A DNA stretch of 52,231 nucleotides from Patescibacteria group bacterium (GTDB lineage: Bacteria > Patescibacteriota > Minisyncoccia > Phycocordibacterales > UBA918): NCBI GenBank assembly GCA_038061715.1, contig JBBTYP010000011.1, positions 1 to 52,231 of the forward strand, read 5' to 3'. The notes below the pieces were generated by a model. That model was not told the DNA's origin. It did no database searches and was given only the letters and a program-made list of their open reading frames with translations. Shown here piece after piece: positions 37,225 to 39,190 of the stretch; positions within the stretch are counted from its first letter, which is position 1; every line of letters begins with the position of its first letter. The translations under genes were made by a program, and so were the position numbers.

Positions 37225-38565
37225 CTATTCGTCTAGTTGTGAAAGCAGGGTGTCGATTCGATTGATATCCCGTGGGAATGGCACAGCTTCTTTGACATTC
37301 GGAAGCTCAAGCATTCGAGAGGTAAATCGCTCCAGGCCGGTTGAACAGCCGCCGTGTGGCGCTACGCCGTATTTGTGGTGCATTAAGTAGAAGCCAAATT
37401 TATCAGGGTCAAGGTTGCGACGTTTCATCTTGGCTACCATCGAGTCATATTCGTGATAGCGCTGAGCTCCACTATTTATTTCAAGACCGCGGAATAGAAG
37501 GTCGAAACTGCGACATAGTTCAGGTTTTTCTGGTATCTCAAGCGAGTAGAAGGCTCTCTTGTCGGTTGGAAACTCAGTAATAAATACAAAATCTGAATTA
37601 TGTTTTGCTTTGGCCCATTCACAAATCTTTCGTTCATGCTCCGGTTCCATATCAAGTTCTCCAATAGCGTCGATTCCGTATTCTTCTTTAAGAATTGTTT
37701 GTGTCTCAAGTAGAGTCAGTCGCGGGTATGGTCCTTCTGGCAATGCTGGTGCTGTGGTGTTAAAGCGACTAAATACTTCACTGTGTTTAGCTACAACAGA
37801 ATTAACCACCTCCCTAGTCACTGCCTCAAGTTCATTCATCACGTCATTATGGTCTTTGATGAAGCCCATTTCGAAGTCCATTTGGGTAATTTCTGCTAAG
37901 TGCCTTGTGGTAGCTGATTTCTCAGCGCGGAAAATTTTAGCAATAGTGAAAACGCGCTCAAAGGCACCGGTCATAATTTCTTTGTAAAGCTGGGGGCTGG
38001 TAGCGAGATTAGCGGTGCGACCGTTGAAGTATTCAACTTTGAAAACTTCAGCACCACCTTCAGCATCACTTCCAACCAGTGATGGTGACTGAAATTCTAC
38101 AAAGTCCCGCTTAATTAATGCATCCCGGTAGGCTTGCACGATAGTAGCTGACACTTTGAAGATGTCTTGTGCTCTTTGCATTTTTAGCGTCAGTGGTCTG
38201 TTATCCAAAACGGTTTCTAGTGAAAGTTCACCGTCTAGGTCAAATGGCATTGGGGCTGAAGCATTAAGTACTTCGATACTTGTGATTTCTAGTTCGATGT
38301 CGCCATTTAGCACGTTTACGTTGATCATTTTCTCTGGACGTTGATTAATTATTCCCTTCACTGCCACGGAATACTCAGCTCCAATATCCTTGGCTATTTC
38401 AAGTACTTCCGGTTTACCAAAAACCACACCTTGAATGAGCGAGCTGCGGTCGCGAAAATCAAAGAAGGCCATCTTGCCTTGGTGGCGGGCGACATTCACT
38501 ACGCCATTAATCAGCACCTCGGTACCGACGTAGTTTTTTAAGTCTTTTATTAGTGTTCTTTCCAT
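37225..38565 (-). CDS. aspS: Aspartate--tRNA(Asp/Asn) ligase, short non-discriminating (archaeal-like) type
   Basis: 446 aa, no GAD insert; LATSPQLYKE, FRAEKSATTRH, EINSGAQR, PHGG..GLER, PFPRD. Confidence 0.9.
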   Translation of the reverse strand: MERTLIKDLKNYVGTEVLINGVVNVARHQGKMAFFDFRDRSSLIQGVVFGKPEVLEIAKDIGAEYSVAVKGIINQRPEKMINVNVLNGDIELEITSIEVLNASAPMPFDLDGELSLETVLDNRPLTLKMQRAQDIFKVSATIVQAYRDALIKRDFVEFQSPSLVGSDAEGGAEVFKVEYFNGRTANLATSPQLYKEIMTGAFERVFTIAKIFRAEKSATTRHLAEITQMDFEMGFIKDHNDVMNELEAVTREVVNSVVAKHSEVFSRFNTTAPALPEGPYPRLTLLETQTILKEEYGIDAIGELDMEPEHERKICEWAKAKHNSDFVFITEFPTDKRAFYSLEIPEKPELCRSFDLLFRGLEINSGAQRYHEYDSMVAKMKRRNLDPDKFGFYLMHHKYGVAPHGGCSTGLERFTSRMLELPNVKEAVPFPRDINRIDTLLSQLDE

Positions 38566-38662
38566 ATATTTTTATCGTAGAAACGTCCAGCAATTTCGGG
38601 CGGGCTAAAGCCCGAAACTGGGACATAAATTAGCAATAGTCGCTTGCGCTCGTTTGCTCATT

Positions 38663-38820
38663 CAAATCGTTCCTACATACATATTAGATTAATAATACGA
38701 ATGCAGGGGCGATTACAATCTTGTGATTGCTCGCGGTGCCACCCTACTTCCCGACTGGTGTGCCAGTGCGGCTTGGTTTACTCATTTAACCTCCACAGTG
38801 TCAGCTGTTTCTTCGGTATC
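38663..38820 (-). promoter_or_regulatory. T-box riboswitch (Asp specifier) in aspS leader
   Basis: AGGGUGGCACCGCG...UCGCCCCU antiterminator (38705-38745); K-turn Stem I 38789-38817 with apical GAC (38800-38802); competing hairpin 38666-38713. Confidence 0.8.
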
Positions 38821-38825
38821 TATAT

Positions 38826-38854
38826 AGATTAGTATTGATTATTGGTCTGGTCAA
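38826..38854 (-). promoter_or_regulatory. Sigma70 promoter of T-box/aspS
   Basis: TTGACC-17 nt-TAATCT placing TSS just before Stem I. Confidence 0.6.
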
Positions 38855-38857
38855 GCA

Positions 38858-39190
38858 CTACTCTACTACAGTCATACGTAAATACGGCCGCCCATCACGC
38901 CAGTAATCAAGAGCAAAATCCTTATTTGAAAAAGGGTCGTGCGGCGCTCTATCTAGTTGAAATTTATTTAAAAAGTTCTCGTAGGCAGTCTCAGTTTCTG
39001 CGTCCTCTCCTGCATCGTTAATTAAAAAAATGGCGATATCAGTATCAGAATTTGGGACACGCTCTACTCTAGCCTTCGAACCAAGTTTCTCGCAGGTTTG
39101 TGAAAAGTAATCTAAAGCACTTCTAACCAAACCATTTTTAATAGTATCTTGTCGCTTCCCTACTTCAAATGGAGAATGGTTATACTGCAC
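38858..39190 (-). CDS. Hypothetical protein
   Basis: 110-aa ORF directly downstream of trpS. Confidence 0.6.
   Translation of the reverse strand: MQYNHSPFEVGKRQDTIKNGLVRSALDYFSQTCEKLGSKARVERVPNSDTDIAIFLINDAGEDAETETAYENFLNKFQLDRAPHDPFSNKDFALDYWRDGRPYLRMTVVE

Follow-up and report, generated by a model that had tools for sequence, protein, structure and literature searches.

Actinobacterial ileS T-boxes with an ultrashort Stem I, for which Sherwood et al. 2015 is said to be the primary paper, and the T-box of Clostridium acetobutylicum, which reportedly (Saad et al. 2012) responds to Asn and controls ND-AspRS/GatCAB (AspRS, aspartyl-tRNA synthetase; ND, non-discriminating), are points of reference for the leader described here. 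Two ways in which a T-box holds its tRNA are set out in the passages of PMC7583486 and PMC11297988 that concern tRNA binding: a long Stem I resting on the tRNA elbow, or a Stem II and IIA/B clamping the codon-anticodon helix. According to the same passages, the second way is essential for T-boxes with a truncated Stem I, in which removal of Stem II or of the pseudoknot costs them their tRNA binding (PMC7583486, PMC11297988). As far as the TBDB description goes, the short-Stem-I model of that database was searched in Actinobacteria only, and sequences shorter than 100 nt were removed. In the open literature, a body of work that most subscription journals lie outside, we found no paper linking T-boxes to Patescibacteria, Saccharibacteria or the candidate phyla radiation.

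We analysed a stretch of 52,231 nt (the window) from a Patescibacteria group bacterium whose genome (781 kb, 97.5% complete, 45% G+C) contains two T-box-like leaders, one upstream of aspS in the window and one upstream of thrS. Of the first, an initial annotation had proposed that it is a T-box of compact build, whose Stem I is ultrashort, contains a kink-turn and bears an Asp codon at its apex, and the elements it described are all found in the minus-strand sequence where it had placed them. We consider it likely, from sequence comparison, that this leader is a genuine tRNA-Asp-responsive T-box of reduced architecture that, through an overlapping terminator, would control the transcription of aspS.

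Stem I is a hairpin of 29 nt (38817-38789; this and all other features of the leader lie on the minus strand) that reads ACC / 3-nt bulge GAA / GA / A / ACAG / loop CUGACA / CUGU / G / GA / GGU, that is, a 3-bp C-stem, a 3-nt bulge, a tandem G.A/A.G, a 4-bp helix and an apical loop. The tandem is the GA motif of a kink-turn, present at the base of Stem I as a sequence signature; a search of the 97.5% complete genome for an L7Ae-family kink-turn-binding protein gave no match. At this length, it is not the long kind of Stem I, and a distal platform for the tRNA elbow is missing. The apical loop presents the specifier codon GAC (Asp, 38802-38800), followed by A38799, and the codon matches the anticodon GUC of the genome's tRNA-Asp. 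Stem I is followed by an A-rich linker of 17 nt (38788-38772) with no predicted helix, at which the Rfam T-box model RF00230 deletes 40 positions. Stem II and IIA/B, of which the initial annotation had already seen no obvious sign here, are absent: folding of the region from Stem I to the core yields only Stem III. By eye, an S-turn-like AGUA occurs in the linkers of only some minimal leaders, and no hidden Stem II motif is evident. The Stem III hairpin (38771-38751, -10.9 kcal/mol) is present and is flanked by purines, with AAG on its 5′ side and, 3′ of it, GAAGUA (38750-38745).

The T-box core GGGUGGCACCGCG (38744-38732) is an exact match, as is the conserved T-box sequence AGGGUGGNACCGCG over 38745-38732. 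The core opens an antiterminator (38744-38706) composed of helix A1 (GGG/CCC), a 7-nt bulge UGGCACC (38741-38735), and helix A2 (GCG.../...CGC) with an upper helix; its partner strand is CGCCCC (38711-38706). A terminator hairpin (38713-38666) shares AUCGCCCC with the antiterminator and is weakened by a CC/AA internal loop. It is followed by UUUG (38663-38666), the remnant of a U-tract that in relatives reads, at the same place, for example CGAUUUUCGUU or CGAUUUUUUGUU. A copy of a dispersed structured repeat of ~78 nt (38584-38662; 85.2 bits with our repeat model R2) then separates the terminator from the start region, where segment c (CGUUUCUAC, 38585-38577) is complementary to the 3′ arm of the terminator (GUAGGAACG, 38676-38668). 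The gene itself, aspS (38565-37225), encodes an archaeal-type AspRS of 446 aa, probably an ND-AspRS, and is assigned to aspartate--tRNA(Asn) ligase (NCBIfam NF003483, 435.6 bits, cut-off 353).

A possible, weak promoter read by eye (38826-38854) consists of TTGACC (38854-38849), a 17-nt spacer and TAATCT (38831-38826), and ends 9 nt before Stem I. A consensus scan of 38500-38950 found neither a promoter nor a terminator. In the relative L052, the scan gives the promoter GTGACA-16-TACACT, ending 8 nt before Stem I, and again calls no terminator; the terminator scan is therefore non-discriminating, as it cannot handle such long interrupted hairpins. An upstream ORF of 110 aa (38858-39190) was set aside: it belongs to no NCBIfam family, has no relative among the aspS loci collected, and is unrelated to the small ORF between T-box and aspS in five relatives. 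In L043, L048, L056, L065 and L071, the T-box lies 395-479 nt upstream of aspS, with space for a small ORF between the two.

The leader stretch also occurs in metagenomic DNA contigs, from groundwater, freshwater, biofilm and drinking water; there is no RNA run among the listed matches. In contigs from four runs, several fragments match the repeat core only, and a contig joint from 38567 to 38732 (side 21) was disregarded as too weak.

The Rfam search proposed in the initial annotation had a divided outcome. RF00230 aligns with the leader end to end, deleting 74 model positions of distal Stem I in addition to the 40 of Stem II/IIA-B, at a score of 19.9 bits (E 0.021 on 401 nt) that lies well below the cut-off of 93, and the whole window has no Rfam match at gathering score. 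The T-box core motif with at most one mismatch occurs once in the 52-kb window, against an expectation of 0.08, and at least one match is found in 8/100 shuffles. The case that the leader is more than a chance match is carried mainly by its relatives, through conservation and covariation.

In a sample of 30 aspS loci from 41 genomes, 18 carry a T-box core upstream, and 17 of these 18 leaders share the short Stem I, its loop reading CUGACA or nearly so. Two forms can be told apart: a minimal form (6/17), in which Stem I begins 59-74 nt before the core, and a form with Stem II and IIA/B (11/17), in which it begins 109-207 nt before the core. In one sibling of the latter kind (L015), RF00230 aligns Stem II and IIA/B at 51.6 bits. 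The covariance model of related leaders that had been suggested was built from the six minimal leaders (model R1). It scores 102.1 bits on the aspS leader, with the thrS leader as the next match in the source genome at 13.3 bits, and matches 87/128 genomes of the genus (E<=0.01) and 68/97 high-quality genomes. Among the best 30 R1 matches, 29 are minimal, spanning 97-140 nt when measured from Stem I through the antiterminator; the 30th, L071, is a misaligned Stem II form. The gene downstream is aspS in 29/30 of these loci, and the remaining locus reaches a contig end 179 nt after the core.

Conservation and covariation in related aspS leaders, whose absence would have counted heavily against a T-box, are both found. 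The compact pattern of Stem I (3-bp stem / 3-nt bulge / GA / N / helix / NU-GAC-A / helix / N / GA / 3-bp stem) fits 29 of the 30 aligned leaders; the bulge takes 13 different triplets, and GAC-A is invariant in 29/29 minimal leaders. In the alignment, which is fitted to R1 and so favours the structure, and which contains the one misaligned row (L071), 97.4% of cells are paired and 11/18 pairs have changed on both sides, a level reached by 0/500 shuffles; slid controls pair 39-50%. Compensatory changes occur in both Stem I helices and in 5/5 upper A2 pairs, with A1 and the base of A2 (GGG/CCC, GCG/CGC) invariant. A hairpin of -5.0 kcal/mol or stronger stands at the place of Stem III in 23/29 minimal leaders, with differing sequences, and the 5′ linkers of minimal leaders are 50% A. 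Six aspS T-boxes of 97-103 nt (L057, L058, L059, L061, L063 and L067) have no stable Stem III (-1.0 kcal/mol or weaker), and in these a purine-rich stretch of 24-28 nt links Stem I to the core.

Beyond the genus, R1 matches 40/151 genomes of the order (34/131 genera) and 16/151 genomes of the phylum. We read the leader loops by eye and checked the downstream proteins with NCBIfam, and found that, as the initial annotation had thought worth checking, loop codon and bulge nucleotide both follow the downstream gene, with codons for Asp/Asn, Thr, Ile and Val. Loop GAC with bulge UGGC or UGGU precedes AspRS in 10/10 cases, with L202 also before AspRS; loop ACC with bulge UGGA precedes ThrRS in 5/5 cases and, in addition, the source genome's own thrS; loop AUC with UGGU precedes ORFs, partial in both cases, whose best match is IleRS (2/2); and loop GUC with UGGU precedes ValRS (1/1). 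Loop AAC with UGGC or UGGU is found in nine cases, all before AspRS and none before AsnRS. These AAC-loop T-boxes, in other families of the order, stand before both bacterial-type and ND-type AspRS genes (L153, L157, L169-L172, L178, L189, L192) and, judging by the codon, would sense tRNA-Asn, not tRNA-Asp. Three further R1 matches (L182, L185, L186) have a UGGC core, a different upstream structure and ORFs of 237-264 aa downstream.

RF00230 exceeds its cut-off in 0/151 genomes of the order, with a best score of 60.8 bits. The earlier impression that the lineage is poor in T-boxes is thus to be reversed: T-boxes are widespread there, and lie below the Rfam cut-off. The thrS leader of the source genome (C10:18817-19075, plus strand, locus L006) is such a second T-box, with 30.5 bits for RF00230 and bulge UGGA; what Rfam put under Stem IIA/B, a short hairpin with ACC in its apical loop, appears to be the true Stem I.

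The tRNA genes of the source genome agree with what the bulges would read. Its tRNA-Asp(GUC) has discriminator G, so the bulge UGGC fits G73-C-C-A, as had been expected of a bulge ending in C; UGGA likewise fits U73 of the genome's tRNA-Thr(GGU). The tRNA-Asp(GUC) gene (C6:16006-16314, minus strand, locus L246) was missed by a default tRNA scan and recovered with introns allowed. It is the sole gene for this tRNA and is split in the anticodon loop by a 234-nt insert, a group I intron (RF00028, 52.6 bits, cut-off 50). In the same intron-tolerant mode, aragorn lists further tRNA genes as interrupted candidates, Thr(UGU) and Ile(GAU) among them. The genome further encodes tRNA-Asn, with G73, and gatB (483.6 bits), and a search of the genome for asnS returned nothing at the cut-off, the only match being aspS itself (244.8 vs 342.6). 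From this combination we infer that AspRS also serves tRNA-Asn, and the enzyme is probably non-discriminating, in line with the initial reading.

The mechanism that we propose starts from the 29-nt kink-turn hairpin, whose loop GAC would pair with the anticodon of tRNA-Asp. In the bulge, UGGC would pair with the 3′ end GCCA of the uncharged tRNA and so sense charging. This 3′-end pairing would stabilise the antiterminator, together with Stem III, against the overlapping terminator hairpin, and in the presence of uncharged tRNA-Asp aspS would be transcribed. The decoding hairpin would in this arrangement be joined to the discriminator by the short A-rich linker, with neither an elbow platform nor Stem II/IIA-B. 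Given the published loss of binding in truncated-Stem-I T-boxes deprived of Stem II or the pseudoknot, binding by the minimal form is not a given.

The expression platform can be seen in relatives. Where it is the sole predicted structure, their antiterminator-overlapping hairpin folds at about -20 to -31 kcal/mol, and it is followed by U-runs such as UUUUCGUU. Across 21 relatives, 94.0% of terminator-helix cells are paired and 6/19 pairs have changed on both sides; in 21/29 loci with aspS, the core is followed by the start codon at a distance of 100-121 nt. The strong terminator with its U-run suggests that the family acts by transcription attenuation, and the transcriptional action that the initial annotation thought probable is thereby supported, on anatomical grounds. 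The same annotation had noted the bare UUUG and a start codon about 100 nt away. Neither belongs to the family: both are explained by the ~78-nt repeat, which has been inserted in the U-tract and splits it. Removing the repeat in silico gives CGAUUUG followed by UUUCUAC, much like the relatives, and in the close relatives L052, L053 and L047 the repeat is missing at this place.

The consensus fold of the repeat, from six copies, has two hairpin domains and 12/23 compensated pairs, and it matches no Rfam family. In the source genome, R2 gives 15 matches at E<=1, five of them below 1e-5, with copies at C4:25068-25146, C22:10588-10666, C25:3936-4012 and C3:12226-12292; in the genus it occurs in 46/61 genomes, a single genome holding as many as 47 copies, and some copies are arranged in tandem. 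The repeat inserts in leaders, both after terminators (L060, L064) and inside T-box Stem II regions (L032, L014).

In the source genome, the platform differs from this family pattern. The window's terminator hairpin, at -17.7 kcal/mol, is more stable than any of 200 shuffles (z = -5.9, 0/200 fold as well) and weaker than those of relatives; in the minimum-energy fold of 38744-38666 (-27.2), helix A2 is retained next to the upper hairpin; and the hairpin is followed by no more than UUU. With two G-to-A changes at the terminator base and a repeat insertion that leaves three U, the switch is probably leakier here than in relatives. These same features, together with the fact that 11/30 sampled aspS loci have no T-box and the gene can thus do without one, would also be expected if the T-box were in decay, inherited from a working ancestor and no longer regulating in this genome, its terminator base mismatched and its U-tract interrupted. 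We regard such decay as unlikely, since no part of Stem I, GAC, Stem III, the T-box core or the antiterminator is damaged, and segment c has UU opposite the GG-to-AA change of the 3′ arm, which suggests that the RNA is still under selection. Moreover, L060 and L064 have intact terminators although the repeat sits at a site of the same kind, L043 and L047 have perfect hairpins and also only three U, and contigs from two other studies are identical to the leader over the parts that they cover (38300-38763 and 38495-38826).

The pairing of the 3′ arm bears on a further alternative, which we find somewhat less likely still. In it, the platform would be partly or wholly translational or mRNA-structural: the 3′ arm would pair either with the 5′ arm or with segment c, and a tRNA-dependent choice between the two would set access to the start region. 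The 3′ arm of the terminator indeed has its complement in a segment that precedes the aspS start codon by 9-20 nt (columns 39-47 with 67-83 of alignment A4). Conservation of this helix extends over 21 leaders (pairing in 95.2% of cells, many of them G-U; slid controls 44-67%), with a covariation of 0.465 vs 0.325 in shuffles (0/500 as high), and being rich in G-U is sensible only on the sense RNA. A cruder complementarity test gives a mean longest complement of 8.4 nt, vs 7.3 with arms swapped between species. In the window, the helix is kept across the repeat insertion, the two A that weaken the terminator being matched by U in segment c (GUAGGAACG with CGUUUCUAC). The ultrashort-Stem-I T-boxes of Actinobacteria are, moreover, translational, as PMC11297988 describes them where it treats their regulation. 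However, the relatives' long hairpin, built on G+C, is directly followed by U-runs, the hallmark of intrinsic termination, and near the aspS start the hairpin sequesters no sequence resembling a Shine-Dalgarno. As for the AGGA in the 3′ arm, the one ORF that it precedes has 18 codons, belongs to the repeat and is not found in repeat-less relatives; noticed by eye after the hairpin, this ORF was discarded as a target of regulation on account of its place within the repeat.

Chance resemblance to a T-box, which might be read from the RF00230 score (19.9 vs a cut-off of 93) and from one-mismatch copies of the bare 13-mer in 8/100 shuffled windows, is refuted by the comparative data, as the leader is conserved in 87/128 genus genomes at a fixed position before aspS, covaries in five helices, and matches the tRNA in both codon and bulge, and we give it virtually no weight. 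Our overall reading is that the leader is a real T-box, conserved and logically consistent in its parts, that probably responds to tRNA-Asp by attenuation and is probably weakened in the source genome.

Our confidence is evenly balanced on a bolder proposal, that leaders of ~100 nt read tRNA with only the 29-nt kink-turn hairpin and the discriminator, and, in six species, also without the Stem III hairpin. If true, a T-box could do without both accessory modules, each of which is at present regarded as necessary in its turn, with the A-rich linker perhaps taking their place, and these leaders would be the smallest working tRNA-sensing riboswitch. A conserved natural class of T-box that is devoid of both tRNA-holding modules, found beside Stem II siblings before the same gene, offers a comparison for minimal tRNA recognition, and the minimal leader is a very small scaffold for engineering. 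Furthermore, leader sequences indicate that Patescibacteria may regulate at least aspS, thrS, ileS and valS via T-boxes that are absent from current Rfam-based annotation. In a quick gene tree of AspRS, for which minimal forms were over-represented in the sample, leaders of the minimal and the Stem II kind are interleaved: parsimony requires 12 changes, starred branches force at least 6, and the clade of the window's AspRS (L008, L048, L053, L009) is minimal throughout. This gives only a hint of repeated Stem II loss.

Like the T-box of Clostridium acetobutylicum, the leader would govern a probable ND-AspRS; the clostridial element, however, reportedly reads tRNA-Asn and has a classical long architecture (Saad et al. 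2012), whereas the aspS leader reads GAC. It shares with glyQS T-boxes, in the account given in parts of PMC7583486, the absence of Stem II/IIA-B, a short flexible linker between Stem I and Stem III after the kink-turn and, as proposed for the aspS family, transcriptional control. By that same account (PMC7583486), glyQS has a long Stem I, a distal platform on the tRNA elbow and a strong GGC:GCC pairing, and the aspS leader has neither the platform with its long stem nor that pairing. With the class II T-boxes of actinobacterial ileS (e.g., Mycobacterium ileS), it has in common a short Stem I, a basal kink-turn, an apical-loop specifier, a canonical discriminator (Stem III and T-box bulge) and the lack of an elbow platform. 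The actinobacterial specifier, however, is for Ile where the leader has Asp, and, in the structural descriptions of PMC7583486 and PMC11297988, those T-boxes keep Stem II and the IIA/B pseudoknot where the aspS leader has a 17-nt linker. They also sequester the ribosome-binding site, whereas the minimal aspS family ends in a terminator and U-run; as to class II membership, Stem I thus fits, Stem II/IIA-B are absent, and a terminator with U-run stands in place of ribosome-binding-site sequestration. Also close are the Patescibacteria siblings before aspS (including L015, L152, L156, L197 and L203), thrS, ileS and valS, which have the same Stem I design, core and terminator; these siblings keep a Stem II with the GAA/AGUAGA motif and IIA/B, whereas the form found in the window has lost both.
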